Source: an uncultured Methylobacterium sp. (GTDB taxonomy: Bacteria; Pseudomonadota; Alphaproteobacteria; Rhizobiales; Beijerinckiaceae). From it: DNA of 64,000 bases. Position numbers and translations under genes: made by a program. Shown in pieces: positions 42,008 to 64,000 of this stretch; position 1 is the stretch's first letter; every line of letters begins with the position of its first letter. The notes under the pieces were generated by a model, which saw only the letters and a program-made list of their open reading frames with translations, was not told the DNA's origin and did no database searches. The stretch is from NCBI RefSeq assembly GCF_964242245.1, contig NZ_CAXTBY010000003.1, positions 31,294-95,293 on the forward strand, read 5' to 3'.

Positions 42008-42024
42008 GGCAGGGCCGGGGCAGC

Positions 42025-44761: not shown

Positions 44762-44883
44762 TAGGAAATCCTCTTGGGTGATGAACACCTGAGAGGGCTA
44801 CCGCCCAGCCGACAGCCAAGTTCCGGATTCGCCGGGGCGTGGGCCGTTTGGCCGCGCGCGGGTTGCCGTTACGGCCCTCCGGT

Positions 44884-46164
44884 CTACGCGCCGAGCGCGC
44901 CGTCGAGATCCTCGATCAGATCCTCCGGGTCCTCGAGCCCGATCGAGAGGCGCACGACCTCCGGGCCGGCGCCGGCTGCGGTCTTCTGCGCATCGGTGAG
45001 CTGGCGGTGCGTGGTCGAGGCCGGATGGATCACCAGCGAGCGCGTGTCGCCGATATTGGCCACGTGCGAGAAGAGCTGCAGGTCGGCGACGAGCTTGACG
45101 CCGGCCTCGTAGCCGCCCTTGAGGCCGATGGTGAACACCGCGCCGGAGCCCAGCGGCGTGTAGCGCCGGGCGAGCTGGTGGTATCTGTCGGTCTCCAGGC
45201 CCGGATAGCTCACCCAGGACACGGCCGGGTGCGTCTCGAGGTGGGTCGCCACGGCGAGCGCGTTGTCGCAGTGGCGCTGCATCCGCAGCGGCAGGGTCTC
45301 GATGCCGTTGAGGATCAGGAAGGCGTTGAACGGCGACAGCGCCGGCCCGAGGTCGCGCAGGCCCAGCACCCGGATCGCGATGGCGAAGCCGAAATTGCCG
45401 AAGGTCTCGGCCAGCACCATGCCGGAGTATTCCGGCCGCGGCTGGCTCAGCATCGGGTAGCGCGCGTCGCCCGCCCACTGGAACGAGCCGCCGTCGACCA
45501 CGAGACCGCCGATCGAGTTGCCGTGGCCGCCCAGGAACTTGGTCGCCGAGTGCACGACGATGTCGGCCCCGTGCTCGAAGGGGCGGATCAGGTACGGCGT
45601 CGCCATGGTGTTGTCGACGATGAGGGGGATGTTGTGGCGGCGGGCGATCACCGAGAGGGCCGCGATGTCGGTGATCACGCCGCCGGGGTTGGCGATCGAC
45701 TCGCAGAAGATCGCCTTGGTGCGCGGGGTGATGGCGCGCTCGAACGAGGACGGGTCGTCGGTGTCGGCCCAGACGACGCCCCAGCCGAAGTTCTTGTAGC
45801 TGTGGTTGAACTGGTTGATCGAGCCGCCGTAGAGCTTGTTGGCCGCGATGAACTCGTCGCCCGGCTGCATCAGGGCGTGCATCGTCAGGAACTCGGCCGC
45901 GTGGCCCGAGGCCACCGCCACCGCGGCGGTGCCGCCTTCGAGGGCGGCGATGCGCTCCTCCAGCACCGCGTTCGTCGGGTTGGTGATGCGCGAGTAGATG
46001 TTGCCGAAGGCCTGGAGCCCGAACAGCGAGGCGGCGTGATCGACGTCGTCGAACACGAAGCTCGTGGTCTGATAGATCGGCGTCGCCCGCGCGCCGGTCG
46101 TCGCGTCGGGGCTGGCGCCGGCGTGGATCGCGAGGGTGTTGAAGCCGGGCAGCCGGTCGGTCAT
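44884..46164 (-). CDS. metY: O-acetylhomoserine sulfhydrylase (aminocarboxypropyltransferase)
   Basis: ATG 46164 with [52 protein letters not shown] and the PLP-Lys motif [11 protein letters not shown]. Confidence 0.85.
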
Positions 46165-46331
46165 CGTCGTCTCCTCGGGCACTGGCCGCGATGTAGCCGT
46201 GTACGCCCCGGCGGGAGAGCGGCGCAAGGCGCGCCGTCCCGCATCGCGCGATCCGCGCCGACCCTAAAAAAGACCCGATGCTCGTGCTGTCCGGATCGAT
46301 CCTTCTCCGTTCGCACGGATCGACCCGCGCT

Positions 46332-47963: not shown

Positions 47964-48244
47964 CGCCGGGTCGAAGCGGGCCTTCGACTGAATTCCGGTG
48001 AATCCGGCCGTGCGGTAACTGCAATCGTGGCTTGCGGTCCCGAATCGATATGGTAGGTTTTGTCACCCATCGTATCGCGAGGTTGCGAGCCGGGGCGCGG
48101 GGCCAGAAGCGGATCGATCCGCCGACCCTGCCCGAGGTTCTCGACATCCTGTCGCCGCGTCGCGCTCCGGCGGGTCGACGCTCCGTCGCGCGCCCCCGGA
48201 TCGATTCCGTAGGCGCGCCGCGCGGCGCGCGAAGGGGGGCTGTG

Positions 48245-49555
48245 ATGCACACGCGCGCCTTGTTCGAGGCTCCGGTCTTCGAGAGCACCGCACCCGAGCG
48301 GCGGATGGCCGCGCTCGAAGCCGAGAACATGCACCTGCGGACCCTGCTGGTGCAGGCGACCCGGCAGGCGGACGCGGAAGCCGAGCGCAGCGAGCGCCTC
48401 GGGCGGATCTTCATCTCGGAGCACAGCGCCAACCGCGTCGAGGCGAGCCGCGTCTTGTCGGAGGCGGCGCGCCTTCGCGCCGAGGCGGACGCCGTCGTCG
48501 CCCATTGCCGGCGCGACCTCGCGGACGGGGCCGCCCGCCTCGCCGGTGCCGAGGATCTCAACACGCAACTGCGCGCGAGTGAGGAATTCACCCGCCGAAT
48601 CCTCTGGACCACGACCGACTTCGTGAAGATCCTCGACCTCGGCGGCCGGCTCATCACGGTGAGCGAGAGCGGGCCGGCGGTGCTCGGCGTCGCCAGTTCC
48701 GCGAGCCTCATCGGTCGGCCGTGGCTGGAGTTCTGGTCCTGCCCGGACAGCCGCGCCGGCATCCTGCGCGCCCTCGACGAGGCGCGGGCGGGACGGCCGT
48801 GCCGGTTCCAGGCGCGGCTGAAGACTGGCATGAGCGAGGATGCGGCGACGTGGTGGGACATCGCCGTGACGCCCATCGATGGCGCCGATGGTCGCCCCGA
48901 GCGCATCCTCGCGGTGTCGCGGGACATCACCGAACTCAAGCGGAACGAGGCGCGTCAGACCCTGCTGATGCAGGAACTCGCGCATCGCGTGAAGAACACC
49001 CTCGCCATGGTGCAGGCGGTGGCGACGCAGACGCTGCGCAACGCGGTGTCCCTGGAGGCCGCGGGCGAGGCGCTGGGCGCGCGCCTTCTCGCCCTCGCGC
49101 AGGCCCACGACGTGCTGATGCAGGGTTCATGGTCCAGCGCCTCGCTCTCCGGCCTCGTCGCCGGGGCGGTGGCACTCCACGGGGACGGCGTGCCTGGGCG
49201 CTTCCGGGTGAGCGGGCCGGCCGTGACCCTCGAGGCCCGTCACGGCCTGACGCTGGCGCTGATGCTGCACGAACTCGGCACCAACGCGGCCAAGTACGGC
49301 GCGCTCTCGACCGCCGCCGGGCACGTCGTGATCGCGTGGGACGTCGTCGGCGCGGATGCGGACGCCCGCCTTCGCTTCCGCTGGCAGGAGGTCGGGGGTC
49401 CGCCCGTCGCGCCGCCCACCCGGACCGGCTTCGGCACCCGCCTGATCGCGCGAAGCCTCCGCCACAGCTTCGGTGGCGCCGTCGATCTCGGCTTCCCGCC
49501 GAGCGGCGCCGTGCTGACCCTGGAAGCCCCGCTCGCGGTGGTCGCCACCGCTTGA
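48245..49555 (+). CDS. PAS-domain HWE/HisKA_2-type sensor histidine kinase
   Basis: N-terminal coiled coil, a PAS-like segment (FTRRILWTTTDFVKILD..), H-box LMQELAHRVKNTLAMVQAV, and HELGTNAAKYGA. Confidence 0.8.
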   Translation: MHTRALFEAPVFESTAPERRMAALEAENMHLRTLLVQATRQADAEAERSERLGRIFISEHSANRVEASRVLSEAARLRAEADAVVAHCRRDLADGAARLAGAEDLNTQLRASEEFTRRILWTTTDFVKILDLGGRLITVSESGPAVLGVASSASLIGRPWLEFWSCPDSRAGILRALDEARAGRPCRFQARLKTGMSEDAATWWDIAVTPIDGADGRPERILAVSRDITELKRNEARQTLLMQELAHRVKNTLAMVQAVATQTLRNAVSLEAAGEALGARLLALAQAHDVLMQGSWSSASLSGLVAGAVALHGDGVPGRFRVSGPAVTLEARHGLTLALMLHELGTNAAKYGALSTAAGHVVIAWDVVGADADARLRFRWQEVGGPPVAPPTRTGFGTRLIARSLRHSFGGAVDLGFPPSGAVLTLEAPLAVVATA

Positions 49556-49635
49556 GGGGACTTGCCTGCCCGTGCCTCCACCCAGCCGTCCGGCCACGGG
49601 TTGGCATTGGCGTCGCCTCGTGAGACGGCAGGGGC

Positions 49636-49959
49636 GTGTCCACCATCCTCCTCTACGTCGCGGCGGCGCTCGCCGAGATCGCCGGCTGCTTCTCGGCCTG
49701 GGCGTGGCTGCGGCTGGGCCGCTCGCCGCTCTGGCTGGTTCCGGGCTCCCTGGCGCTCGCCCTGTTCGCCGTGCTGCTGACCCGTGTCGGGAGCGGGGCC
49801 GCCGGCCGGACCTACGCGGCCTACGGCGGCGTCTACGTCGCGCTCTCGCTCGGATGGCTCTGGCTGGTCGAGGGACAGAGACCCGATCGCTGGGACCTGT
49901 CGGGCGCGATGATCTGCCTCGCCGGGGCCGCCGTGATCCTCTGGGGACCGCGCCCGTGA
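49636..49959 (+). CDS. YnfA/UPF0060 family small membrane protein
   Basis: 107 aa with four helices. [42 protein letters not shown]. Confidence 0.8.
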
Positions 49960-50045
49960 GGCGGGCCGCCGCGACGCCGCCGCCTTGACGGGGGGGAGCC
50001 CGGAGAATACGCCCCGGGCTCCACGAGACATCGTCCGCAGGCCCG

Positions 50046-50432
50046 ATGACCGATAGTCCGACAGAGCACCCCGTCGTCCTCCTCGTGGAAGACGACGGCC
50101 TTCTCCTGATGGAGGCCGCCGACACGCTCTCGGATGCGGGCTTCACGGTGCTGGAGGCGAGCCACGCGGACAAGGCCCTGAAGGTGCTGGAGAACCGCGA
50201 CGACGTCGAGGTCCTGATGACCGACGTCGACATGCCGCAAGGCTCGATGGACGGGTTCGCGCTGGCCCGGCTCGTCGCCGACCGCTGGCCCGCGATCCCG
50301 GTCCTCGTCGTGTCGGGGATGGGCACGCCCGGACCCTACGACATGCCGGACGGGGCGCGCTTCATCCCGAAGCCCTACGAGCCCAACACCCTGGTGCGGA
50401 CCCTGCGCGCCTTCATCAACCGCGCCGCCTGA
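50046..50432 (+). CDS. single-domain (CheY-like) response regulator
   Basis: VVLLVEDDGLL..VEVLMTDVDMPQGSMDG..IPVLVVSG..FIPKPY. Confidence 0.85.
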   Translation: MTDSPTEHPVVLLVEDDGLLLMEAADTLSDAGFTVLEASHADKALKVLENRDDVEVLMTDVDMPQGSMDGFALARLVADRWPAIPVLVVSGMGTPGPYDMPDGARFIPKPYEPNTLVRTLRAFINRAA

Positions 50433-50434
50433 CT

Positions 50435-50469
50435 CCCTCCCGCCCGTCGTCCGGGCGGCCGCGGGAGGG
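50435..50469 (+). terminator. GC-rich stem-loop after the receiver gene (probable terminator, no U-tract)
   Basis: CCCTCCCGC (50435-50443) pairs with GCGGGAGGG (50461-50469). There is also an inner GCCCG/CGGGC pair. Confidence 0.35.
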
Positions 50470-50494
50470 CCGGACGGAGGACCGATCCGAGATC

Positions 50495-51796
50495 ATGTCA
50501 GACACCCCGCACAAGCCCCGCTTCGCCACGCAGGCCATCCACGCCGGCGCGGCCCCCGATCCGGCCACCGGCGCGCGGGTGCAGCCGATCTACTTCACCA
50601 ACGGCTTCGTGTTCGACTCGACCGAGCAGGCGGCCGATATCTTCAACATGCGCCGCACCGGGTTCTCGTATTCCCGCGGCTCGAACCCGACGGTGGCCGC
50701 CCTGGAACGGCGGGTCGCGGCGCTGGAGGGTGCCAAGGCTGCCGTCGCGGTGGCCTCGGGCCAGTCCGCGGTCATGCTCGTGCTGCTGACGCTGATGCGC
50801 AGCGGCGACGCCTACGTCGCATCGCCGCGCCTGTTCGGCGGCTCGCTCGGCCTGATGCGGCGCCTCGACGGCCGCTACGACCTGAAGCCGCACTTCGCCA
50901 AGGGCCTGACGCCGGCCGACTTCGAGGCGGCGATCACCCCCGACACCCGCGCCATCATCTGCGAGTCGATCGTCAACCCGTGCGCCACGGTGATGGACCT
51001 CGCGGGCATCGCCGAGGTGGCCAAGCGCCACGGCCTGCCGCTGGTCGTCGACAACACGCTGGCGTCGCCTGCCCTGATCCGCCCGATCGAGCACGGCGCC
51101 GACATCGTCGTCCATTCGACCTCGAAGTTCCTGGGCGGCTCGGGCCAGACCATCGGCGGGGTGATCTGCGATGCCGGCAACTTCGACTGGACCAGGACCG
51201 ACCACTACGACCTGATCACCGGGGCGTGGCCCGACTACGACGGCCTCGTCATCACCGAGCGGTTCCCCGAGACCCCGTTCGCGGTGGCCTGCCGCCTGTT
51301 CGGCCTGCGCGACCTCGGCCCCGGCCTCTCACCGATGAACGCCTTCCTGACGCTGACCGGCATCGAGACCCTGCCGCTGCGCATGGAGCGGCACTGCGCC
51401 AACGCGCGCGTCGTCGCCGCCTACCTGAAGGACCATCCGGCGGTGGCCTGGGTCAGCTATCCGGGCCTGCCGGGTCAGCCCGGCGAGGCGATGGCCAAGC
51501 GCTACGTGCCGGGTGGGCCGGGATCGATCTTCACCTTCGCCCTGAAGGGCGGCGAGCCGGCGGCGCTGCAGTTCATCACCGGGCTGGAGTTGTTCTCGCA
51601 CCTCGTGAACCTCGGCGAGATCAAGTCGCTGGCGATCCATCCCGCCACGACCACGCACCGCCAGCTTCCCGATTCCGAGAAGGCCGCGGCCTGCGTCGGG
51701 CGCGAGGCGGTGCGCCTGTCGATCGGCCTGGAGAACGTCGAGGACCTGATCGCCGACCTCGCGCAGGCGCTGGCCAAGGTCGGGTCGCCGGCATGA
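50495..51796 (+). CDS. PLP-dependent O-acetylhomoserine/O-acetylserine sulfhydrylase paralog
   Basis: FATQAIHAGAAPDPATGARVQPIY..SNPTVAALE and the PLP-Lys motif HSTSKFLGGSG. Clearly diverged from the copy at 44884-46164. Confidence 0.85.
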   Translation: MSDTPHKPRFATQAIHAGAAPDPATGARVQPIYFTNGFVFDSTEQAADIFNMRRTGFSYSRGSNPTVAALERRVAALEGAKAAVAVASGQSAVMLVLLTLMRSGDAYVASPRLFGGSLGLMRRLDGRYDLKPHFAKGLTPADFEAAITPDTRAIICESIVNPCATVMDLAGIAEVAKRHGLPLVVDNTLASPALIRPIEHGADIVVHSTSKFLGGSGQTIGGVICDAGNFDWTRTDHYDLITGAWPDYDGLVITERFPETPFAVACRLFGLRDLGPGLSPMNAFLTLTGIETLPLRMERHCANARVVAAYLKDHPAVAWVSYPGLPGQPGEAMAKRYVPGGPGSIFTFALKGGEPAALQFITGLELFSHLVNLGEIKSLAIHPATTTHRQLPDSEKAAACVGREAVRLSIGLENVEDLIADLAQALAKVGSPA

Positions 51797-51962
51797 TGCG
51801 TGGCCTTCATCCGGCGCCGCCGCGCTGAAGCGCGGCACGATCGGGGCGGATGGCCGGCTATGCCCATCCCTATCTCCGGGGTCAGCGCACAGGACGGCCC
51901 CGCAAGCGGATCAATCGGAACGGAACTGCTCGCCTGCGGTGCCTTACCGATCCGCGGCCTTC

Positions 51963-52102
51963 TGTGCGTCGACCCATAAACCCGGACTGACCCGCCCTTA
52001 GGTCGCTGGGCGAGGCCTCGCAGCCTCTCAGGGTTACCCGGAACGCACCAACCCATAAAGCCGGAATGCGCCTCTGGCTCCCTCGCCATAAAGCCGAACA
52101 GG
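51963..52102. repeat. putative transposon left-end: TGTG terminus plus three direct transposase-binding-site-like repeats
   Basis: TGTGCGTCGACCCATAAACCCGGACTGA (51963-51990). Repeats are GACCCATAAACCCGGA (51971), AACCCATAAAGCCGGA (52050) and TCGCCATAAAGCCGAA (52083), all in the same orientation. Confidence 0.45.
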
Positions 52103-52228
52103 GAGGCGCATACGCCCTCTCTGACCGCGCAGGATATCAGGCAATCCACATCGAGCAGCGCACGCACGCCCTAAGGACTGAAAGGAGCAGGATCGAATGG
52201 TCTTGCCTCAGCCAGCCTGTGGAGAAGG

Positions 52229-52257
52229 GAGCCGGCGGCGAACGACACCGCCGGCTC
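52229..52257 (-). terminator. GC-rich hairpin just after the last cargo gene
   Basis: GAGCCGGCGG-cgaacgaca-CCGCCGGCTC, a perfect 10-bp stem. It starts 5 nt past the TAA of the 114-aa ORF. No U-tract. Confidence 0.45.
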
Positions 52258-52261
52258 TGGC

Positions 52262-52606
52262 TTAGGCGGCCGAGTAGGCCAGGCGCGGCCCGCGCTCGCG
52301 CGGGTAGCCGGGCGTGACCGGCACGCTCACCGGCGCCTCAACGCGCAGTTTGACCTTATGATGGGTGCTGCACTTCTGGATGGTCACAAACACTCCAGCG
52401 AACAGTTCACGGCGTTCGCCGAGCGGAATGCAGGCGCCCCGAAGGAAATGCGCCCCGTGCTGTGATGGCCGGCTCGGGTCACGGTAAGCAACCACCGCCC
52501 CCTTCCCGTCCTCATCCTCGTAGATATGCTCCACGCTGAGCCATGCGTCCCCAACAGAAAGCGGGCGATGGCACTGCGTCGTGCGATGCAGGGAAGTCGT
52601 CTTCAT
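52262..52606 (-). CDS. hypothetical protein (114 aa), last gene inside the transposon
   Basis: ATG 52606 with GGAG 6 nt upstream. No TM segment and no motif I recognise. G/C-ending codon bias is moderate. Confidence 0.45.
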   Translation of the reverse strand: MKTTSLHRTTQCHRPLSVGDAWLSVEHIYEDEDGKGAVVAYRDPSRPSQHGAHFLRGACIPLGERRELFAGVFVTIQKCSTHHKVKLRVEAPVSVPVTPGYPRERGPRLAYSAA

Positions 52607-52978
52607 GGTTAGCTCCATAGAACGGATTGAGGTCTATGGGGCTTAGCGGCCCGTTCATGGGCCACGCTCGGCTGAGGTGAGAAGGCCCCGTCGGCTCGTC
52701 AAGGAGGCCGCCGACGGAAATCGGCGACTAAGATCGCTTGCACGCTGCTCAAGAGCGGACCTCCCTATCCCGCCTCTAGGCCTTCAGCCTCTCGATCTCA
52801 GCGTTCGCCGCGAGCTCCTTGCGGATCGCCTCCAAACCTACGAGCTACCGAAGCACGTTCCCCGCCTAGGCCAAATGCCGGCAAGAGGCTGTAGGCGAGG
52901 CCGAACACCTACATCGCAAAGCCCGCCCCCATGCCGATCAGGAGGGCATCGGGCATCGGGCATCGAGACCGGCACCCC

Positions 52979-55663
52979 TCAGGAGGTCACGGCCCGTCCG
53001 AGCAGCTGAAGCTCATGGAGGGGAAACGGCAGCCGCGTGTCGCCTCCGTACTGGGTGTGGACCTGCCGGAGTCGGTGGGCGGCCATCCTAACGGCTGCGA
53101 GGTCGTCATCCGGCTGGCAGAATACGGCGCAGATCTCGTCCATGGCGGCGAGGCGCCGGGGCTTGTCGTCACGCACCTTGTTGTCGCCGGGCGCGAGGTG
53201 GCGCGAGATCAGGGCGTTCGGGATAAACTTGGACATGGGCTTCGGCTTGCGCTTCAGGCCGTAGGCGGTCCTGGCTCCATCGTCCCAAGCGAACAGCCCG
53301 CCTGGCCAGGCTGTGTCCTCCAGGTGGTAGTAGGTGGGCAGCTTTTCGTCGTCGGAGACGAAGCGGACCATCCGGACGTTGGGCAGGTCGGCCGGCCTGA
53401 AGCTCCGGTTGCCGACCTGGAGGTTGTCGAGGGCGAGGTTGCCGTTCTGAAGCGACTTGATGATCGTCCCGAGGCGATCCCCGTCGAGGAGCACGACGCC
53501 GCCGCCTTTGCTCGCGCCGGCCGCGTCGTCGATCTGCTCCAGAGCCGTGTCGTAGAACATGTGGAATCGGCCGAGGTTCTCCTCGTCGCGGCCGCGGTTG
53601 AAGCGTCCGTATTCCCCGGCGAAGATGGCGAGCGCCGCGAGGCCGTAGGGTTGCCAGTTCGGCTCGCCCTCGTCGGTCGGGACGGCGCATTCCAGGATGC
53701 CTTCCTTCACGCGGGCTGCGAGTGGGAAGGACTGCTTCTCGACCCCATTGCTGGCGTTGCGCTGAATCACCGACAGGGCAGCCGGGGCGTAACGCAGGTC
53801 CTCTTCGTAGGGCGGGAGCACCCCGAGCATGCGCAAGCAGTCGCCGATTGCGGCCTTGTACTTGTCGTCAACGACCCCTTCGTCGTCCCAGAGGACGACC
53901 TGGGGCAGGACACGTTGCCGGGCGAGTTCGCGCCGGGCGAAGGTATAGGGGTCTCCCCTCTGACCCTGCAGGTTCGCGGCCATTTCCAGGATCGTGCACG
54001 CAACGCCCGTGCGCCCGACCCGAATGCCTCTCACCCAGGCGGCCATGCGCCGGGCCGCCTCGACGCCGATCTCGTTTTCGCGAGCTCGGAGCATCTCGCC
54101 GATCTGGCGCTCCGTCCGCCCGGCCCGCTCGGCATCCGTAAGGGCTGCCGGCCGGAGCGCCTCGGCGAGGATCCCGGCCGGGGCCTCCACGATGTTGATG
54201 GTGAGACCATCCTCCCAGGTCATGGTCCCGTCGCGGCGCGCCGGCTCGCCCAGGATCACGGCGAGCTTGTCCCGGACAGTGGCGGGCGTGCCCTCCAAGC
54301 CATGGAGCACGAGGAAATCGAGCTCCTTGCCGTTTCCGAGGACGCCCAGAGTCTTGATCAGGGCGGCGCGACGGGCTTCGAGGACGCCAGCGTTGACCGC
54401 AGCCTCGCTGAAGGGGCTCTCGACCGACATGGTCTTCGAGATGCGCCGCATGGTTGGTGCGCGCTCCAGCAACATGTCGCCGAGCGGGGCATCGAGGGAG
54501 TTGGAAATGTCGAGGCGATCCGGCCACCCGACGCCCGTCCCACCGGCGAGATAGCGGTCGCCGCTGCCGGGGGCGAGCCTCGGCAGCACCCAGAGCCCAT
54601 CGCGGCCGCTAACCATCTGGATGCCGTCGCCGTCCGCGAGGGACCCGGGGGAAACAAGTCGCCTGAGTAGGTCGTAGATGCGATGGTCGCGGTGCGACTC
54701 CCACCGGGCCACTATCCGCCTGTCCTCGCGACGCTGGCGCACCCCCTCCCAGTTCTCGACGAGGGCCTTGAAGGGAAAGGACGTGTGCCGGTAGTCGTCG
54801 AGGCCGCCCGACGCTTTCTCCGAGGGCATGAACAGGTCGAGGGAACGCGCCGGGCTGCCTGTGAGGTCGTAGCCGACGGGGACCGCCCAGTTGCGGATCG
54901 AGGGCCGCGCCAGGATGTGGATGCCCGCTTCCTTGCGCTCCGGGAAGGTCGCGGCCTTGATGGTGACGACCTCGGAATAGTAGGCGTCGCGGCTCGGATG
55001 CTTCTTCGGGGGGAAGGCGACGAGGTCGATGCCCTCGAAGGGCGAGGAATGCGGCGTGCGGGCGACAAGGGTCCGTTCCTCGCCCGACGCGAAGCGGATC
55101 GAGCGCCCGGAGAGGTGGTCGACGGCGTGGGCGACGAGAGCGTCGTAGAGCAGCCGGTTCTCCGGGATCGCGCAGATGCCGTCGTGGGCCTGGAGGCGGG
55201 TGTGCACCTCGATGGAGACCCAGTTCTCGTCGTCGCCCGCGGAACGGGCAACGTCGTCCCGCACCTCGGGGTCCTTGTTCCCGTAGATGGTGCCGAGCCA
55301 TAGGTTGATGGCGGCCACCACACGCCGGCGCAGGTCCCGGTCGCCCGTCCGGTCGCCGACCATGTATAGGGCGAGCCGTATGCCGGCGCCGGGGACGGAC
55401 CGGGCGCGTGGGTCCATGTAGGCGATTTCCGGGACCAGGAAGGCCAGGATCTCGGACAAGCCGGCGAGCACGATATAGGTGGGCTGGTTGGCTCGACCGG
55501 TCCGCTCGACGCACCATTGCAGCAGTGTCGTGTGGGCGTGCTCCGGCAGCATGAAGCGGGTCAAGAGGAGCGCCTCGTCGAGGCCAGTGGTGGTCCACGC
55601 GGCGACGTGTAGCTCGTCGGTCGATCTAGCCAAGGCGAAGCCCCTCTGTGTTGGCGAGCGCAT
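52979..55663 (-). CDS. large pPIWI-RE-like protein (third gene of the nuclease-helicase-PIWI-RE module)
   Basis: About 890 aa. The C-terminus ..RRLAAMDEICAVFCQPDDD..AHRLRQVHTQYGGDTRLPFPLHELQLL, the size and the gene context match my memory of the pPIWI_RE (DUF3962/DUF3893) family. Start is uncertain: ATG 55663, or TTG 55633 with AGAGGGG SD. The track start 55993 overlaps the helicase by 368 nt and is rejected. Confidence 0.55.
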   Translation of the reverse strand: MRSPTQRGFALARSTDELHVAAWTTTGLDEALLLTRFMLPEHAHTTLLQWCVERTGRANQPTYIVLAGLSEILAFLVPEIAYMDPRARSVPGAGIRLALYMVGDRTGDRDLRRRVVAAINLWLGTIYGNKDPEVRDDVARSAGDDENWVSIEVHTRLQAHDGICAIPENRLLYDALVAHAVDHLSGRSIRFASGEERTLVARTPHSSPFEGIDLVAFPPKKHPSRDAYYSEVVTIKAATFPERKEAGIHILARPSIRNWAVPVGYDLTGSPARSLDLFMPSEKASGGLDDYRHTSFPFKALVENWEGVRQRREDRRIVARWESHRDHRIYDLLRRLVSPGSLADGDGIQMVSGRDGLWVLPRLAPGSGDRYLAGGTGVGWPDRLDISNSLDAPLGDMLLERAPTMRRISKTMSVESPFSEAAVNAGVLEARRAALIKTLGVLGNGKELDFLVLHGLEGTPATVRDKLAVILGEPARRDGTMTWEDGLTINIVEAPAGILAEALRPAALTDAERAGRTERQIGEMLRARENEIGVEAARRMAAWVRGIRVGRTGVACTILEMAANLQGQRGDPYTFARRELARQRVLPQVVLWDDEGVVDDKYKAAIGDCLRMLGVLPPYEEDLRYAPAALSVIQRNASNGVEKQSFPLAARVKEGILECAVPTDEGEPNWQPYGLAALAIFAGEYGRFNRGRDEENLGRFHMFYDTALEQIDDAAGASKGGGVVLLDGDRLGTIIKSLQNGNLALDNLQVGNRSFRPADLPNVRMVRFVSDDEKLPTYYHLEDTAWPGGLFAWDDGARTAYGLKRKPKPMSKFIPNALISRHLAPGDNKVRDDKPRRLAAMDEICAVFCQPDDDLAAVRMAAHRLRQVHTQYGGDTRLPFPLHELQLLGRAVTS

Positions 55664-58600
55664 CGTGGAACGGCCGGTACAGCAGGTCCGCCACCTCGTG
55701 CTCCTTGGGATTGATGTTCGGGTCCATGGCCATCTCAAGTTGGCGCAGGATCTGGACCAGTGCGCTCGATTCCGGCGTATCGCTCTTATTGTCTCCATCG
55801 AACGACAAGGGCGCGAACGAGTAGTCGACGAACCCAATCCGCACGGGGGAGCCGCCGCGGATGCCGCGGCCGATGGTCTGCCAGAGCGGGGTGAGCATGT
55901 CCCAGGCGAACTGGGCCTGAAATTCATGTGGCAGGCTGCGGTAGCCGAAACGTCCCGCCTCAAGTCCGTACCTGACGATGTTGCTGGCGGCATGCCTCAC
56001 GCGGCGAGTCCGGCGTGCGAGGTCCTCATCCCCGTCCTCCGGCTTGACGCCCTTGTCGTAGCGTTCCTGCGCGAAGCGGTTCAGGCGACCGATGGTGGGC
56101 CCGAGGTCGTCGGGACGGGGATGGGGCCGGTGCAGAAAGTAGATCGAGGAGATCGCAGCCTTTCCGTCGCCGTTGAGGATGTTGTGCCCGCGGGCGACGA
56201 CCTGCATGGGGGCGACGAGTACCGACCTCTCGGGCTCGCGCCCGAAGCGCTCGATGAGTGAGCGAGGCATGGGTTTAGCCTGGGCGAGGCGGATGTGCTC
56301 GACGGCGGTGCCCGCATCGTCCCGGTCGCGGACGAGACAGTGCACCTTCCAGCCCGCGTAGCCCGCTCCGTCGAGTGCGGCCGAGAGGGCGTCGGCGACA
56401 ATCGCGGCGTCCGCGTAGCTGTTCGTCACCAGGAGGGCCCGCTGGCGGCCGGTGATGTCACCGGGCTCCCAGCGCCGCTCCATCTTGTGCCAGTCGTCTT
56501 CTAACCGATTGCGGCCGTCGCGCCGGGCCGCGAGGCGCTCGGCGATGATTGCAAGGTTGGCCCGACGCTCGTTCTGCGGCCGCCCCGAGACGCGGATCTG
56601 GTGGCCTTCGCCGTCTTTCACATGGACCAGGCCGAAGACGGACCTCTTGATCGCCTTGAGCTCGGCCTCTGGCTGGACCAGCACGCCCCTCACGGGCACC
56701 TGCACGTCGAAGGAGGGGGATGCCGCGTCGATGGGCCGGCCCGACCTCGGGTCCTTACGGCGCACGCTGCCACCGGCCCAGCTCGTCCCTGAGAGCATGA
56801 GGACGTGCGGCCCGGCCTGGCCCTCCGCGGCGAGAAGGTCGTGCAAGTGGGTGAGGAGGTGGCGCCCGACGCCCAGGTGGCTGATGAGGGTGAGCTTGCC
56901 GCCCATGGAGGTGCGCTGCTCGTTTTCGGGCTCGTCGTAGAACAAGCCGAAGGCGGCGCCGGCCGGGTTCGCCGGCAGGAGTGTCCTGTAGTTCTTGATG
57001 AGGCTGTTGGCTTGGCCGAGCAGATGGCCGTCGTCGATCTTGAAGTCGCGGGCAACGGCCGACTGGGTCTTGATTAGCCAGTTGTAGTGCGAGAGCGCCA
57101 GATCGGTGACGACGGCGAGCAAGAGCGCGAGCGCGTTGGCCTGAGCGTCAAGGACCAGCTTCTTCGGCCCCTCCTCGCAAACAGCGTTGAAGATCTCCAA
57201 CTCGTGGTCGAGGGCGTCCTGCACTAGCGGCACGACCGCGTCGTAGTAGTCGGCGACGAGAATCTGACGGGCAATCTCCTGCAGGTGAAGGGCGGCAGTC
57301 CCGTAAGCCGGGTCCGAGAAGGAGGGGGCGTCGTCCTCGGTCTCCTCCTCGCCGACGGACGCCGCCCGGGAATAACCCTTGATGGAGCCGGCTACCCGGA
57401 CAACGTCGAGGAAGCCCTCCGCGAAGGCGGGGTTGTCGAAGGTCATGCTCTCGCGCGCGGTCCCGAGGACGAGGCTGCGGCGGCGCCAGAGGTCGTAGAG
57501 GATGCTGCCCGCCGTGAACGGGGTGTTCTTGAAGAAGGGACCAAGGATTTCGCGCTCGTTCTGCAGGATCGCGTAGATCGTCCCGATCAACCGGAAGAAC
57601 GTGAAAAAATTCGATTGCCACTTGGCGTTTACGGGCTTGCGGAACTGGACGCCCGAGCGCTCCCGCAGGGCCTCAGACGAGCGCAGGCCGATGCTGGGCG
57701 CGTAGACGTTCCGCTCGTCGCCCATGATCGGCGAGCGAGGCGCGAAGACGTCGTCGAGGGCCTTCTGGACGCCGTCTACCTCGTCGACGATCACGAGGTC
57801 ATACTCGTACTGCAGGAGCTCCGGGATGCTGAGGTGGTGCTCCGTCGTCCACTTGTCCGGGGTGATGTGGACAAAGGCCGGCGGGGTCATGATGAGGACC
57901 TGGGCGTCGACCGCATCGCGCTGCTGCTGCTGGGCCGGGCAGACGGTCCAGAGCGGGCACGAGCGAGCCTTCACATTGTCGCCGACGTCGTCGGGGTTGG
58001 TGCCCTCCTCGTCATCCTCGGTAGGTGGCGTCTGGTAGATTCGGTGGCACTGCTTCTCCGGGAAGGTGGGGAAGCGGCGGCCCTCGGGCTCGCCCTTGAC
58101 CACCTCGGGGTCGGGCTGGGCGCCGTCGAGGGGGCAGGCGGTGCTGAAGCCGTCAGCGAGGTCACCCAGGGCCGACAGCTTCCAGCCCGTGGCGTCGAGG
58201 CTGCGCTGCCAGTGGATCGACTGAAGGTGGGCCTCGCGGTTGCGCAGGCTGGAGAGCACCGTTGCCTTGATCCCATGCCGGCGCAGGCGCGAGGCGAAGG
58301 TGGCGCCCTGGATGGTGTCGCTGACGAGGATGGCGATGCGCTTGCCGCTGCCGCCCAGGGTTAGGGCCATGAGCAGCGCCCAGACGAGGGTGGACTTCCC
58401 CGAGGAGAGCATGCCGACGACGTGGGTGGCGCCGTCCAGGTTGAAGGTACCGTCCTCGTAGAACCCGTCGAGCCCCTTGGGCTGGAGATTGGCGATGCGT
58501 GAGGCAAGACGGAGCGGGGGAAGGCTCTCGGCGGGCCAGTCGTCCAGGGTCTCGCGAGTATCGACCTTGAGGGCGACTTCCCGCATCTGCTCGAAGGTGA

Positions 58601-59186
58601 TTTGGATAGGCGGGTTGGAGGCGCGCGGCCGAAGGGCGTGCTCACGGCGCGCCCGGCGCTCCGCCGGCACTGCAGGGATCGTGTAGGCGAGTGTGGTACG
58701 CGTCCTATCGAGGACGACGGTGGCGTCGCCGGGCAAGGCCACGTTGAGCTCACGGCGTGTCCACGGGACGGTGGCGTCCAGCCAGGTGTCGAGGAGCTCG
58801 CGCATCACGGCCGGCGCAGCCCGCCGCGGTGACACGGCGGTCCCGCGGACCTCGAAGCAGCGCAGGGCCTCAGGCGTACGGCCGTACTGGAGGATGGCGT
58901 CTACCCAGGCCGAGATCGATCCGAAGCGCGAGCAGAGGTGCCGGACGGTCATGAGGGAGCGTATGGCCCCCGGGCCGCCTGCCCCATCGAGGAGTTTGGG
59001 ATAACCCATCATGAGGAACGGCACCGACCGATGTGGCTCGTCCGGCAGGTAGCGGTGGAGGTAGGCGAGGCAGAGCTCAGTCTGGGCCAGGGTGCGTACG
59101 CGCTCGCCATCGAGGTCCCGCGTGTCCGGATCGATGGCCGAGAGGGCATCGCGGTAGGCGGCGAGGTATTCGCGGTCGGACCTCAT
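55626..59186 (-). CDS. SF2 DinG/XPD-like helicase (1186 aa)
   Basis: ATG 59186 overlaps the upstream TGA (ATGA). Walker A VVGMLSSGKSTL (58389-58415) and DExD box LVIVDEVDG (57774-57785). Four Cys lie between them, and a motif-VI-like MQVVARGHNI follows. Confidence 0.75.
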   Translation of the reverse strand: MRSDREYLAAYRDALSAIDPDTRDLDGERVRTLAQTELCLAYLHRYLPDEPHRSVPFLMMGYPKLLDGAGGPGAIRSLMTVRHLCSRFGSISAWVDAILQYGRTPEALRCFEVRGTAVSPRRAAPAVMRELLDTWLDATVPWTRRELNVALPGDATVVLDRTRTTLAYTIPAVPAERRARREHALRPRASNPPIQITFEQMREVALKVDTRETLDDWPAESLPPLRLASRIANLQPKGLDGFYEDGTFNLDGATHVVGMLSSGKSTLVWALLMALTLGGSGKRIAILVSDTIQGATFASRLRRHGIKATVLSSLRNREAHLQSIHWQRSLDATGWKLSALGDLADGFSTACPLDGAQPDPEVVKGEPEGRRFPTFPEKQCHRIYQTPPTEDDEEGTNPDDVGDNVKARSCPLWTVCPAQQQQRDAVDAQVLIMTPPAFVHITPDKWTTEHHLSIPELLQYEYDLVIVDEVDGVQKALDDVFAPRSPIMGDERNVYAPSIGLRSSEALRERSGVQFRKPVNAKWQSNFFTFFRLIGTIYAILQNEREILGPFFKNTPFTAGSILYDLWRRRSLVLGTARESMTFDNPAFAEGFLDVVRVAGSIKGYSRAASVGEEETEDDAPSFSDPAYGTAALHLQEIARQILVADYYDAVVPLVQDALDHELEIFNAVCEEGPKKLVLDAQANALALLLAVVTDLALSHYNWLIKTQSAVARDFKIDDGHLLGQANSLIKNYRTLLPANPAGAAFGLFYDEPENEQRTSMGGKLTLISHLGVGRHLLTHLHDLLAAEGQAGPHVLMLSGTSWAGGSVRRKDPRSGRPIDAASPSFDVQVPVRGVLVQPEAELKAIKRSVFGLVHVKDGEGHQIRVSGRPQNERRANLAIIAERLAARRDGRNRLEDDWHKMERRWEPGDITGRQRALLVTNSYADAAIVADALSAALDGAGYAGWKVHCLVRDRDDAGTAVEHIRLAQAKPMPRSLIERFGREPERSVLVAPMQVVARGHNILNGDGKAAISSIYFLHRPHPRPDDLGPTIGRLNRFAQERYDKGVKPEDGDEDLARRTRRVRHAASNIVRYGLEAGRFGYRSLPHEFQAQFAWDMLTPLWQTIGRGIRGGSPVRIGFVDYSFAPLSFDGDNKSDTPESSALVQILRQLEMAMDPNINPKEHEVADLLYRPFHDALANTEGLRLG

Positions 59187-60475
59187 CGCGCGACGTCCAG
59201 GTCGGAGAGGAGGGCCGAGATGGTGCGCAAGGCAACTGGCGTCTTGGCGTGGGCGCGGCGGACCGCCTCGAAGCGGCGTTCGTACCCGCGAGCGATCTCG
59301 GGCATGTAGTCGGGCACGACCAGGAAGCATTCGTGGTCGGCGGCGTATTCCTTGAAGCCCTCGAAGCGAGCCGCGAGGTTCTCGGGCGAGAGATGTTCCT
59401 TGACGTCGACCGCTATGCGTCGGCCCGCGGGGGAAACGGCCGCGATGTCGACGCGGTCAAGCCGCGGCCAGAGCTCGACGGTCCAGCGCGCCTTCCGAAG
59501 CCGCTCCGCGAGCAGGAGCTCGGTCTTGCCCGGCAGGCACCAGTAGAGCCGGAAGGCGCGGCGTAGTTGCATGGTGCCGTGCCGCCATTTGACGCCCGCG
59601 GAATCGCCTGATCTCGCGCGCCGGATGGCCTCCGGATCGCGGCTCTCGGTGTGGAAGCCGATACCCTGCCGCCGCAGCACGGTGCCGCTCACGACGCAGG
59701 TGGGCAGGAAGCCGTCGAGCGTGAGGGACTCGGGAACGCGCTGGTAGAAGGCCTCAACGATCTCGTCGACGCGCTCGACCGTGGCGAGGATTGGGTCGGT
59801 GAGTATGGTCGTGGTCCAGCTCCCCAGGACAGGATGCTCGACAACGGCGCGGCGGAAGGCGGCGTAGACCTTCTGGCCATCGCGGCGGTCGACGCAGACG
59901 GACCGTAGCAAGCCGAAGCCGGCCCGCTCGATCAGCTCCGTCTCGGGATCTCTGCCCGGCATGGCCAACTCGACGCAGGCGGGGGTAATCTCGCCATCCT
60001 CGATGAGCTTGGCGGCCGTGAACTCGCCGTCGGGATCCCAATTGAGATCCGTTACCCAGTCGAAGAGCGGTTGCTCGGCGACCGCGGCGAGGGCACGCAA
60101 GTCGGTGGGCCAGAGGGCGCCCGGCTCCATGATGTTGCGGGCCGCGGCTAGATCGAAGGACCGCTGTAGCACGGGCGGGTAGCCATCCTTGAGCCAACCC
60201 TGGGCGTCGACCTGTTGCTGGACCTCCATGAGTCCGCGAGCGAACAGTGTGACCATGTCGCGGTCGCTGCGAACGGGCTTAGCGTCCCCGGCGAGCTCGT
60301 CGAGCCGGGCGCGGATGTCAGGGGCGACCGCATCCTCGTCCTCGAAGTAGCGGTAGAGGGTGGCTCGCCCAATTCCGAGGGCCTGTGCAGCCGCCGTTTT
60401 CCAACGCCGCCCGTACCCAAGCTTATGGCCGAACAGAGCTTCGCAATCCTGATGAAACTTGCTCGCGGCGGACAT
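59183..60475 (-). CDS. HTH-containing PD-(D/E)xK (restriction-endonuclease-fold) protein
   Basis: ATG 60475 preceded by GGAGGG. N-terminal HTH AAAQALGIGRATLYRYF. C-terminal nuclease motif WTVELW..LDRVDIAAV..RIAVDVKEH (E..D..DxK). Confidence 0.7.
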   Translation of the reverse strand: MSAASKFHQDCEALFGHKLGYGRRWKTAAAQALGIGRATLYRYFEDEDAVAPDIRARLDELAGDAKPVRSDRDMVTLFARGLMEVQQQVDAQGWLKDGYPPVLQRSFDLAAARNIMEPGALWPTDLRALAAVAEQPLFDWVTDLNWDPDGEFTAAKLIEDGEITPACVELAMPGRDPETELIERAGFGLLRSVCVDRRDGQKVYAAFRRAVVEHPVLGSWTTTILTDPILATVERVDEIVEAFYQRVPESLTLDGFLPTCVVSGTVLRRQGIGFHTESRDPEAIRRARSGDSAGVKWRHGTMQLRRAFRLYWCLPGKTELLLAERLRKARWTVELWPRLDRVDIAAVSPAGRRIAVDVKEHLSPENLAARFEGFKEYAADHECFLVVPDYMPEIARGYERRFEAVRRAHAKTPVALRTISALLSDLDVAR

Positions 60476-60495
60476 AGCACCCTCCAACGAGACAG

Positions 60496-60524
60496 ACGAT
60501 ACACGTGTGTCTCATCTGTATCAA
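60496..60524 (-). promoter_or_regulatory. sigma70-like promoter with embedded palindrome upstream of the three-gene operon
   Basis: The minus strand reads TTGATA-N17-TATCGT (-35 at 60519-60524, -10 at 60496-60501). The spacer contains the perfect palindrome ACACGTGT. GAGACA/TGTCTC arms flank the -10. Confidence 0.4.
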
Positions 60525-60585
60525 GAGGGTTAACCTCACGTTCCGTTGGGCGAGTTGGTTAGCTGCCACACACCTGAGCTACCTC

Positions 60586-62500
60586 TCACGCTTGGGCTGA
60601 TAATCGACCATGCCTCCTACATGCCGCACGCCTACGATGAGCCGCCAGGACAGCTTCCACCCGCGCCCGCTCGTAGAACGTCATCTGGCACCGGTCGCGT
60701 CCGATGGCCGGCTCGACCCCAAACCTGGCAAGCCGCCCCGGCACTGACAGGGCATGGACGCCCAAGCGTGCGGCCACGTCGGGTCCGCGCACGAAACGCG
60801 CCTCGAAAGCATGGACGTCCTCCGTCCTGATCCAGTGCACGCCGGAATGGTTTTCCGCCCGAAGATAACCGAGCTCAATGAGCTGCCGGACGGCCTCCCG
60901 CTTCGTCCCGAGCCGCTCCGCGGCCTCCTTCTTGGTCATGCCGGACGCGTCTGGCATGCGGGCGCGGCTCACGTCGGCGGTCAGCACCATCAGGCGCCGC
61001 AGACCGACCGCTTGCGCGTCCACCCCGACGACGGGCACCCTCCCCTCCCTGACCCAGCGCAAGACCTCCACCAAGCTTGCCCCGGCCGCGGTCGCGGCCC
61101 TCATGACCGGGCGGGCATCGTCGGGCCGGGCGCCGGTCTCGCGGGCTGGCTCGAAGCCGGCCACGAAGGCCGCCACGGCCGTCCGCTCCACCGTGTATTC
61201 CCCTCGCGCCCTTCGCTCCGGGTCGAGGGAGGGGGGAAACAGGTCCGAGGCGATGATCTCGGCGGCGGCCGAGCGATGGACGCCCAGCAGCAGGGCGGCG
61301 CCCCCGCAATCGACGCGGTCGTCAAGGCGGGCCTGGATCTGGCGGGCGACCGCGTCGCTCAAGCGTACCGGGCGTCCCTGCTGCGAGCCCTCGGTCGAGT
61401 GGCCCATTCCGCGTACCAGCCGCCGAAACCGACCGTAGGTCAGGCCGGCGAGGTTGCTTCCGGCCTCCAGATTAGTTCCGCCCGGGCGCATCTCGCGCCC
61501 GAACACGACGGAGCCCGTCTTGAGGACGACGTTGCGTTCGGCGTGGTCTGCGGCGGTCGCGGCGACGATTGCCAGGCGGCCCTTCCTGGCCGCGGACGTC
61601 ATCCACGTCCCGAAGGCGCCATAGGCCAGGCCGGCGCCCCAATGGTTCGCGCCCCTTTTGCCGATCGCCATCCGCTCGGGCTGATGGGCGACAAGCCGAT
61701 CCAGGAAGGCGTCAAGGGACGGGCGGCCCCCCCGATGCGATGCCGAAACCCTCACGCACGATGGACGCGGCTTCGTCACGCCGCCATGCCTCGGCGTAGG
61801 TCGCCGTCGGATGAAGGGCGTGCGCACCCAGCCGTTCGCAGAGCGTCAGTGCCTCGGCGAGCGGTAAGCCGGCCAGCAGGCCGTCCTCCGCCACCGGGCC
61901 ATGGCCGACGCGTCCGAGAAGCCAGCGGTCGACGACAAGCGCACCCTCTTCGACGGGTTCGCAGGTCGGGCGGGTCAGGCGTGCCCGGCAGTGGCATCGC
62001 GTAAGATCGAGCTTGTCGTAATGCAGCATGCGCCGGCATCCCGGGCAGCGATGCTCAAGGGGGCGGGCATGACGCACGCAGTGCGCCATCGCCGTCAGAT
62101 CCCAGACCGTCCGGTGATAGGCCGCCTCGGACAGGCAATCGGGACACCAGCGCCGCATGAGGCGGTGGAGGGCGCCATTGGGCAAGTCGTGACCCAGCAA
62201 CTGGGTCTGTCGCTCTGCTCCGTCGATGGGAGAGGCATGGGCGAGTACGACGGGGTCGACCCCGCACGCCTCCGCGATGGCGGCAAGGTGCCGACCCTGC
62301 CTGACGTCCCCTGCCCCGCTGACCCCGAGGAAGCGCCAGAGGCGCCGGGGCGTTCTCAGGCCGGCCTCATGACCGCGACGAAGCACCAACCCGAGAGCAG
62401 GCTCGTCCGCATAGGCGCCGAGGCGGTGGGTGAACCTCCGAGGCATGGCATCGGTCCTCCGTGAATGTCGGGGTGTTCGCGGCTTCGCAGGTCGGGTCAC
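60586..62500 (-). pseudogene. tniQ: TniQ/TnsD-like target-selection protein, split by a frameshift in a G7 run
   Basis: N-terminal TniQ domain (YADEPALGLVLRRGHEAGL; Zn-ribbon RWCPDCL..HCVRH..RCPGCRR) in ORF 61712-62500. It continues as SLDAFLDRLVAHQ.. in ORF 60586-61827. The switch is at the C7 (plus-strand) run 61727-61733. The GTG start overlaps the tniB stop. Confidence 0.7.
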
Positions 62501-63622
62501 CTCTTCGAGAAGTCGGGGGTGTCATTCCGCTTCTTGCCCTTGATGCGCGTTTTTCTCGATGGATCGGGCGCCGGGGCGTTCATGATCCCCGGCTCGTGGT
62601 TCTTCTCGCGCCAGGGATTGGGGCGGGCGTAGAAATCGTCCGATCCGATCTCCCAGAGGAGTTCGTCGAACGCCTGTTCGAAGAGGTTGGGGGTGATGTT
62701 GGGCTGGCCGAGGTCGAGGGCCTTGAAACCGGCAAGCTGGGTGATGGCGGCGATGCGCGAGATCACCGCGTCGGTGGCGCGGTGGAGGTCGAAGCGGATG
62801 GCGTCGCCCGTGAAGGAGGCCTCGGGGAACGGCAGCATGCGGTCGATCTTGTCGAGCGTCTGGCCGAACAGCGCGCGCTCCGCCGGATCGACCCAATCGT
62901 ACGGCCTGAAAGGATGGACGCCCCGCCCGCGCCGGGCGAGCTGACCGTTCCCGACGAACATGGCGTTCATCGTTTGCGTGCCGAAGAAGACCGCGTGGAC
63001 GAAGAACCCGGAGCCGTCCCGCTTCCACTCGGGGGTGGCATCCTCCTCGTTGAGAAGCCCCTTGAGCCAGTCGGCGGCCGCATAGGCGAACTTGTCGGTC
63101 CGGTGGTCCGTGAGGTGCTGGAATTCGTCGATCAGGATGATCCGAACCCGTTGCTCCATGAGCTTCGCCAGGATCCGGCGCGTCTTCTCGCCCTTGTCGC
63201 CGTACTCGGGATCCTCGTCGGCCAGGGCTCTCAGCATGGCGGTGGCCATGCTCGCGATGGTGACCTCGGGTGGTGTCGCGACGCGCAGGATCGGGCGCCA
63301 GTCGCCCCAGGGTGCCTGGAGGGCATAACCCTCAATCCGGTAGCCCGACGCCTCCGCCTCGCGGTCGAGCACCTGGCGTCGGATCTTGCGCAGCAACTGG
63401 CTCTTGCCGACGCCAGGCCTTCCCGGGATGGAGATGTGGATAACCCTCCAGTGCCGACTTGGTCATTCTCTCGAAGAAGTCGAACTGCCCCACCAGGGCC
63501 AATGTCCGCGGGTGCCATGCCTTGAGGCGCATGATGCGGCGCTCGCGCTCGCGCTCGTCCTTCGGCAGGAGGTCGCCGGCGGCGTCGAGGTGAGCGGTAC
63601 GCGGCCCCGTCTGCTCAGTCAT
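62497..63622 (-). pseudogene. tniB: TniB/TnsC-like AAA+ ATPase, frameshifted before the Walker A motif
   Basis: The N-terminus MTEQTG..FFERMTKSALEG is in ORF 63332-63622. Walker A VIHISIPGRPGVGKSQLL and Walker B RVRIILIDEFQHL are in the frame of ORF 62497-63396. The switch is near 63440-63450. Confidence 0.7.
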
Positions 63623-64000
63623 AATCGGCCTCCATGTCGAGGGGGGCGGAGACCGGCGTGGCGGGCGCCGGCACGGGCTCGGAGGGCGTGCGTTCGTTGG
63701 CCGGCTTCGGCTGCTTCCTCGGCGCGACGCGCGGCTTGGCCTGGCGCGGCGCCTGACCCAGACCTGGCTCCGGTGCCGGATCGGGATCAGGCGTGGTCAC
63801 AGGATCAGAGAGCGCCGCGACCTTGGTTGCCCCAGGTGCCTCCAGGATCGCCTCGGGCTTGGCGTCAACCTCGCCGTCATCGTCCTCGTCGTCGAAAACG
63901 CCCTCCATCCGGAAGCTGGCGGGTGGCCGTGCGGCTGCGGGATCGATCCCAAGAGCGAAGAGACGACCGAGCCGCTTGAGGGTCTTGCGACGCCCGTTGC
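63615..64000 (-). CDS. C-terminal end of an ORF entering from the right window edge (presumed TniA/TnsB-type transposase)
   Basis: The frame is open from position 64000 down to TGA 63615-63617. It has an acidic/Pro-rich tail, and its stop overlaps the tniB ATG by 8 nt. Identity is inferred only from its position upstream of tniB. Confidence 0.35.
   Translation of the reverse strand, partial: NGRRKTLKRLGRLFALGIDPAAARPPASFRMEGVFDDEDDDGEVDAKPEAILEAPGATKVAALSDPVTTPDPDPAPEPGLGQAPRQAKPRVAPRKQPKPANERTPSEPVPAPATPVSAPLDMEADYD

Follow-up and report, generated by a model that had tools for sequence, protein, structure and literature searches.

Among Tn7 and its relatives, a division of labour between TnsA, TnsB, TnsC and TniQ is established, and the two ends of Tn7 differ in that the binding sites are clustered at the right end and dispersed at the left. 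The cargo of such elements was surveyed by Benler et al. (2021; mBio, PMC8649781), who list the PIWI REase (restriction endonuclease) family (pfam18154) in 19 of 6,549 Tn7-like transposons, distributed over Proteobacteria, Actinobacteria and Firmicutes, and Tn7017 is reported to insert next to parE via a TniQ (PMC11406308). The stretch analysed here, referred to as the window, comprises 64,000 nucleotides of a Methylobacterium chromosome. Its last part, from position 51963 to beyond 64000, is read as the left two-thirds of a Tn7-like transposon with a pPIWI-RE operon as cargo, and a probability of about 0.9 is assigned to this reading. The initial annotation had already proposed a Tn7-like element of at least 12 kb with a pPIWI-RE operon travelling along, and had stated that defence systems are frequent in the cargo of Tn7-like elements, with which the survey cited above agrees. 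The proposal is supported by the homology of the element to a metagenome locus (L012), by the structure of its left end and by the absence of the cargo from L012.

The locus L012, the closest relative, was reached via a 372-amino-acid (aa) TnsC that belongs to the same 90% cluster as the TnsC of the window. Its order is gapR, right end, a 333-aa gene, a gene for a 228-aa TnsA-like protein, those for TnsB (744 aa), TnsC (372 aa) and TniQ (603 aa), and the left end. Comparison of the whole window with L012 by blastn returned two blocks only, 60640-64000 against 12974-9623 (90% identity) and 51963-52298 against 13511-13176 (80%), and the second block begins precisely at 51963, where the initial annotation had placed a TGTG-initiated terminus. 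The 333-aa gene of L012 (5433-6434) sits between tnsA and the right end, where cargo would not usually be expected, and displays a weak match to NTP_transf_8 (nucleotidyltransferase). The left end of L012 (13511-13516) lies 2 bp from the stop of a convergent 173-aa gene without a family match.

The left end of the window element (51963-52101, no strand) consists of the terminus TGTGCGTC and three direct repeats of the TnsB-binding type at 51972-51989, 52051-52068 and 52084-52101. The terminal sequence TGTGCGTCGACCCATAAA begins at 51963 with TGTG, and the three copies of ACCCATAAASCCGGA that follow, at 51972, 52051 and 52084, are spaced by 79 and 33 bp. The motif CCATAAASCCG occurs in three exact copies within 123 bp and nowhere else exactly in the 64 kb, for which 0.82 one-mismatch matches would be expected. 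The terminus at 51963 is thus more than a chance resemblance and is the true end of the element, because the homology to L012 starts exactly there and because the three-site architecture is common to the left ends of L003 (Methylobacterium oryzae), L012 and L022, in which the sites are spaced by 79 and 32/33 bp (79 and 32 in L003). The segment next to the end that is conserved with L012 (51963-52298, no strand) also includes the last 37 bp of an open reading frame (ORF) of 118 aa and a hairpin with a perfect 10-bp stem (52229-52238/52248-52257), so that the hairpin noted earlier ahead of the terminus is real. All sites of the left end are intact in the window copy.

The right ends of the relatives complete the picture of the termini. 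In M. oryzae L003, TGT and two sites 20 bp apart lie 10 bp after the gyrB stop, while on the opposite side three inverted sites end in TGT just past tniQ. The same asymmetric architecture is displayed by L012, L022, L023 and L024, a motif of the CCATAAASCCG type marking both ends of the related elements, and the right ends of L003, L012, L023 and L024 consist of TGT and two sites 20 bp apart directly after the stop codon of the host gene. A copy of the right end was sought inside the 64-kb window and is absent, the sole other match to the motif being an isolated one at 931 with one mismatch. The right end is predicted beyond 64000 as an inverted end of the form ...CCGGSTTTATGGGTCNNCNCACA, which would read ...CCGGGTTTATGGGTCNNNNTCCGGCTTTATGGGTCAACCCACA on the plus strand with two sites 20 bp apart, and the predicted 5-bp target duplication of the window element is CCTTC (51958-51962).

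Two further features lie outside the left end. An inverted copy of the terminus, GGGTCAGCGCACAG, occurs seventy bp outside it at 51879-51892, and its reverse complement TGTGCGCTGACCC agrees with the left-end terminus of L012 at 12 of 13 positions. The 7-mer GGCCTTC adjoins the left end (51956-51962) and recurs just past the sulfhydrylase stop (51806-51812). These sequences may have been left behind by an earlier insertion into this site or may be a matter of chance (p ∼0.01 for each, a rough and post hoc estimate).

Between the two blocks homologous to L012 lies a segment of 8.3 kb on the minus strand (52299-60639), which comprises the pPIWI-RE operon and most of the 118-aa ORF and has no blastn match to L012, where it is replaced by ∼200 bp. 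It is identified as variable cargo because it is absent from L012 between homologous flanks. After a gap of 110 bp between the tniQ stop (60586) and the REase ATG (60475), the three-gene operon that had been recognised from the sequence is found on the minus strand at 59183-60487, 55626-59186 and 52979-55663. The first gene encodes a 434-aa protein with helix-turn-helix (HTH), pPIWI_RE_Y and REase domains (Pfam pPIWI_RE_REase and pPIWI_RE_Y; PADLOC PprRE, 2.7e-30). The second, the ATG of which overlaps the REase stop (ATGA), encodes a DinG-like helicase of 1186 aa with an N-terminal pPIWI_RE_Z domain; the PADLOC PprDinG match (1e-133) covers positions 5-925 of 930, and the orthologs align over residues 1-1186. 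The third encodes the pPIWI-RE protein itself, which has 894 aa from the ATG at 55663, in a frame open to 55993, carries pPIWI_RE_X, MID_pPIWI_RE and RNaseH_pPIWI_RE (PADLOC PprPIWI, 7.7e-63) and aligns over its full length with metagenome orthologs. All six pPIWI-RE-specific Pfam domains are thus found on the three long genes above the gathering cut-offs, the three genes are full length in comparison with their orthologs, and the PADLOC matches are near full-length. Judged by its sequence, the pPIWI-RE operon is complete and intact and represents a candidate defence system. Among the related metagenome operons, the REase gene of L020 (191-1484) aligns in two parts that overlap (residues 4-259 and 248-433), a sign of a possible frameshift in that locus.

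The operon is followed on the minus strand by an ORF at 52262-52618, which has 118 aa from its first ATG and the previously noted 114 aa from its second. It has no match in Pfam (up to E = 10), NCBIfam or PADLOC, and no homolog was found by tblastn across all the loci fetched. The last ∼11 codons of this ORF, as read by eye, are kept in L012; therefore the ORF should predate the divergence of the window and L012 elements, and because of this retention L012 appears to have arisen by deletion from an ancestor with cargo. In the intergenic region at 52619-52978, comparison with all fetched loci yielded nothing above chance, and a third intergenic region matched only inside the known tniQ homology.

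Other members of the family carry different cargo, namely an AAA_15/21 ATPase (L001/L002), a DUF4011 helicase with a PD-(D/E)xK protein (L005-L008), Gp49/HTH_37 (L022) and Fic/VbhA (L024), while L003 has no cargo. When the flanks of the related metagenome pPIWI-RE operons (L015-L021) were checked for the transposon family of the window, it was present in none. The pPIWI-RE module is accordingly regarded as exchangeable cargo, because the family carries other cargo or none and the related operons occur without the family in their flanks. The GC content is 0.70-0.75 in the flank and drops to 0.645-0.69 across most of the element, tniQ being at 0.72.

The identity of the transposition genes was established by comparison with the relatives. 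On the minus strand, the frame that enters from the window edge (63615-64000) stops at 63615-63617 and overlaps the ATG of the next gene, at 63622, by 8 nt, as described in the initial annotation. Its 127 aa align over their entire length with the C-terminus of the M. oryzae L003 TnsB (aa 831-960, E 2e-14 by BLASTP), the alignment containing NGRRKTLKRLGRLFALG... and both proteins ending in MEADYD, and are 77% identical to aa 618-740 of the L012 TnsB (tblastn). As both of these TnsB proteins have rve and Mu-transpos_C domains, the 127 aa are identified as the C-terminus of the DDE transposase to be looked for upstream of tniB, the catalytic core of which would lie beyond 64000. Next to it, tnsC/tniB (62497-63622, minus strand) encodes an AAA+ regulator, for which Pfam TniB/AAA_22 is found on 62497-63396 with the Walker A motif GRPGVGKS and the Walker B motif ILIDEF, and the profile of which matches VchTnsC as the closest solved TnsC at 2e-30. 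The target selector gene tniQ, of the tnsD type (60586-62446, minus strand), encodes an N-terminal zinc finger of the TniQ family (Pfam TniQ on 61712-62500) and a C-terminal HTH_17 (on 60586-61827), and its product can be aligned collinearly with TniQ of L012 and L003, which have 603-618 aa. The overlap of the tniB stop (62497-62499) with a GTG at 62500, taken earlier as the start of tniQ, is present. Nevertheless, tniB and tniQ are not continuous frames, and tniQ probably starts at the ATG at 62446, because of the gene call of the L012 ortholog and a GGAGGA Shine-Dalgarno sequence.

Both tnsC and tniQ are frameshifted. The tnsC gene occupies two frames, one for the first 60 codons (starting at 63622) and another for the remainder, with Walker A, to 62497. 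The break is one extra T at 63442/63443, just before Walker A, where the window has GAGGGTTATC versus GAGGG-CATC in two orthologs (DNA alignment). An intact 372-aa TnsC ortholog (P0156), with an identity of 90% or more, has SSLEGIHISIPGRPGVGKS spanning the junction, and the repaired tnsC is covered to 98-100% by homologs of 369-387 aa (fully by P0002-P0009). In tniQ, TniQ1 of L003 and TniQ of L012 align in frame -1 up to 61727 and in frame -2 from 61731, and the 1-nt insertion is seen by DNA alignment in a run of seven G at 61727-61733, which is G6 in L012 and CGGGGG in L003. Programmed frameshifting was considered for both breaks and set aside, the intact orthologs reading straight through both sites.

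It may be argued that both frameshifts are errors of sequencing or assembly and that the same element is fully functional, still mobile together with its pPIWI-RE cargo. One of the insertions does lie in the G7 homopolymer, apart from the two breaks tnsC and tniQ retain 85-94% aa identity to L012 without further disruption, and the left-end sites are intact. However, the insertion in tnsC lies outside any homopolymer run (GGTTATC), the truncated TnsC is also on record for the same contig from Logan and ENA, two independent sources, and no frame breaks occur in the ∼17 kb of coding sequence made up of eight neighbouring housekeeping genes of the chromosome and the three long genes of the cargo. 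Because of this last control the insertions are read as real decay, and a functional element is considered unlikely. Since a 1-nt insertion breaks the frame in tnsC and another does so in tniQ, the window copy is probably immobile.

The chromosomal side of the insertion is defined by an O-acetylhomoserine sulfhydrylase gene (50495-51796, plus strand; Pfam Cys_Met_Meta_PP), the product of which is 92-93% identical to several Methylobacterium proteins. It is the last gene syntenic with three Methylobacterium genomes (L009-L011; sulfhydrylase 92% identical in aa sequence), which match the window from 41107 to 51783, resume nowhere within 51784-64000 and have no element at this position. In these genomes a convergent gapR follows the sulfhydrylase gene after 58 bp. 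The suggestion that relatives would display an empty site downstream of the sulfhydrylase gene holds in so far as synteny breaks at its 3' end and no element is found; the 166-bp flank does not align, and the site-defining gene is probably gapR. By the logic of Tn7, the gene next to the right end defines the site, and for this reason the sulfhydrylase gene is probably not the site-defining one. In L012 the right end begins 7 bp past the gapR stop, and over its final ∼45 nt that gapR differs hardly at all from the chromosomal gapR of Methylobacterium. The TniQ of the window is 85-93% identical to this gapR-associated TniQ and 52-60% identical to the gyrB-associated TniQ1 of L003, and the tns genes of the window point away from the expected position of gapR, as the logic of Tn7 demands. 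In window coordinates the right end is expected at ∼68.7 kb, and gapR, just past it, is the most likely target gene, because L012 sits behind gapR, gapR follows the sulfhydrylase gene in the relatives, and the TniQ is closest to that of L012. With gapR as the adjacent gene, an element length of ∼16.7 kb is inferred.

A location downstream of gyrB, or elsewhere following a chromosomal rearrangement, is an alternative to insertion behind gapR. It draws on the more distant relatives L001/L002, L003 and L024, four loci in which the right end lies 3-28 bp after the gyrB stop (L001 6217-6260, L003 5389-5400, L024 1-65; possibly also L023), and on the 166-bp left flank, which is unlike the sulfhydrylase-gapR intergenic region of the relatives. 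The higher identity of TniQ to the gapR-associated protein speaks against it, as does the place of gapR in the close relatives, next after the sulfhydrylase gene and oriented exactly as a target proximal to the right end would be; this alternative is accordingly held to be doubtful. In the searchable literature, no paper was found that connects Tn7-like elements with attachment sites at gapR or gyrB.

Several observations weigh against reading the locus as a gapR-associated, decaying Tn7-like element. The right end, tnsA, most of tnsB and the 5-bp target duplication would lie beyond 64000, outside the sequence analysed. The 166 bp from the sulfhydrylase stop to the left end (51797-51962) cannot be aligned with the 58 bp between the sulfhydrylase gene and gapR in the relatives and display nothing above chance against all fetched loci, because of which the empty site is not reconstructed base for base. 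The gapR adjacent to L012 stands in a gene neighbourhood unlike that of the chromosomal gapR, and a homopolymer such as that in tniQ is a typical site of sequencing error. A clean 5-bp duplication was sought in L012 and not found (CCAGG versus CCTCA); among the relatives checked, only L003 has one, with GCGCG on both flanks, but this lies in a GC-repeat context.

The type of transposon was a further question, since the initial annotation had assigned the element to the TniA-TniB-TniQ type. The C-terminus of tnsB/tniA, tniB and tniQ are indeed present, but the relatives also encode TnsA. A TnsA-like endonuclease is encoded directly upstream of tnsB in all ten relatives whose DNA reaches there, giving the order tnsA-like, tnsB, tnsC, tniQ and cargo. 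These proteins, of ∼230-260 aa, have the conserved motif CESTLE...ARDFWVE...EVK (E...D...EVK); their profile matches the PseTnsAB structure at 5e-7, and the NCBIfam TnsA_like match (3.5e-11) is below the curated cut-off. On the strength of motif and profile they are assigned to TnsA, and the family of the element is classified as TnsA-TnsB-TnsC-TniQ rather than TniA-TniB-TniQ, because the relatives carry a tnsA gene; a tnsA gene would by the same token be expected beyond the window edge. An element of the Tn5053/Tn402 type, without TnsA, transposing replicatively with a resolvase and targeting res sites, would agree with the window as far as it shows only the tniA C-terminus, tniB and tniQ, and with the Pfam names TniB and TniQ. 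Against this stand the TnsA of the relatives, the TGT termini with asymmetric multi-site arrays, the fixed positions of four relatives behind gyrB or gapR, and the lack of a resolvase gene after tniQ in both the window and L012. The Tn5053-type reading is rejected as very improbable, since the relatives have TnsA and a resolvase is absent. It is likewise hardly credible that the pPIWI-RE operon is an independent island beside a transposon remnant, with the repeats at 51963 belonging elsewhere; although the operons of L015-L021 lack the transposon family in their flanks, the operon of the window is bracketed by tniQ and by a left end homologous base for base to that of L012 from 51963 onwards, and chromosomal synteny resumes nowhere inside 51784-64000.

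When the division of labour established for Tn7 is carried over to the window element, TnsB would bind the repeated sites in both ends and cut the 3' strands, as in the kin of Tn7, the 5' strands would be cut by TnsA, and TnsC would connect the transposase with TniQ. The latter would recognise a single conserved host gene at its 3' end, and the insertion would fall a few bp downstream of this gene in one orientation, the tnsA-proximal right end adjoining it. Everything between tniQ and the left end would then travel as cargo. With a broken tnsC and tniQ, the window copy would persist as a fixed defence island that is no longer self-mobile.

On a broader view, the window element and its relatives may form an undescribed Tn7-like lineage, in which a TnsD-like TniQ homes to the 3' ends of DNA-topology genes, gyrB in most cases, the branch of the window and L012 having switched to gapR, and in which the tns genes of the window copy decay around an intact cargo. 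The odds for and against this view are judged to be even. If it is true, the locus is a snapshot of a mobile defence system turning into a fixed chromosomal island.

The presence of pPIWI-RE genes at this position in Methylobacterium would be explained by their arrival as exchangeable cargo of a transposon. This agrees with the published view that Tn7-like elements spread defence systems and introduces no new principle. It adds a well-delimited Tn7-like family, the members of which share the architecture of their ends and insert behind gyrB or gapR, and an example of a transposon apparently decaying around an intact defence operon. The pairing of TniQ with its target in the gyrB/gapR family might serve site-specific integration in Alphaproteobacteria.

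Some features of the surrounding DNA and of M. oryzae may be recorded separately. A 1.8-kb segment of the window (42020-43846), between the genes for an ABC transporter ATPase and a manganese catalase, is absent from the three syntenic Methylobacterium genomes and has ORFs of 314 aa (42025-42969) and 176 aa (42985-43515). Two paralogous pyridoxal phosphate-dependent enzymes of Cys/Met metabolism, ∼54% identical in aa sequence, are encoded 4 kb apart at 44887-46161 (minus strand) and 50495-51796 (plus strand), an arrangement kept in the relatives. When genome contigs were scanned with a TnsC profile, one locus only was obtained, that of M. oryzae. Just outside the left end of its cargo-less element lie a second gene of the TniQ family (L003 13440-15386; 648 aa, TniQ and HTH) and a DpnII/MboI-type REase gene (15560-17170), which may represent what is left of an older element in tandem at gyrB.

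Compared with the three-gene pPIWI-RE islands described by Burroughs, Iyer and Aravind (2013; PMC3702460), the operon of the window has the same genes, domains and order, namely Y with REase, Z with a DinG-type helicase, and X with MID and PIWI-RE; no distinctive feature was found in it, and its activity in defence is a prediction. With Tn5053/Tn402 (TniA-TniB-TniQ-TniR) the element shares the TniB and TniQ Pfam families and a DDE transposase of the Mu/rve type, from which it differs in that no resolvase is present and in that its relatives have TnsA and insert site-specifically behind chromosomal genes rather than in res sites. The resemblance to Tn7 (TnsABC+D, attTn7 downstream of glmS) extends to the gene order, the TGT termini, the TnsB sites clustered at the right end and spread at the left and, among the relatives, to insertion within a few bp past a conserved gene that adjoins the right end and to the 5-bp duplication seen in L003, whereas the sequences are distant, tnsE is lacking and the target gene is another one.

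Far nearer than Tn7 are the CRISPR-associated transposons (CAST) Tn6677 (VchCAST) and PseCAST and the I-F3-related branch of Tn7-like elements, to which the parE-targeting Tn7017 and Tn6230 belong. They provide the closest solved homologs of TnsC, TnsB, TnsA and TniQ, as evident from the profile comparison of TnsB, in which the Pse and Tn6677 proteins score 2e-40 and 7e-37 as against 3e-7 for the TnsB of Tn7. Unlike these, the family of the window is without a CRISPR-Cas module, and its one TniQ is long (∼600 aa), TnsD-like and equipped with HTH domains at the C-terminus; the I-F3 branch targets parE, yhiN or guide-RNA-defined sites, and the family of the window gyrB or gapR. As parE is a paralog of gyrB, the gyrB sites of the family are a small step from the parE site of Tn7017.

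The PIWI-RE transposons of Benler et al. (2021) resemble the window element in that the pPIWI-RE genes are flanked by the target-selector gene on one side and by the far end of a Tn7-like element on the other, and differ from it in that the window copy is frameshifted in tnsC and tniQ. The occurrence of pPIWI-RE in Tn7-like cargo is therefore a combination known from surveys, to which the present locus contributes further detail, in that its core is decaying, its attachment gene is probably a new one and the architecture of its end is well defined.

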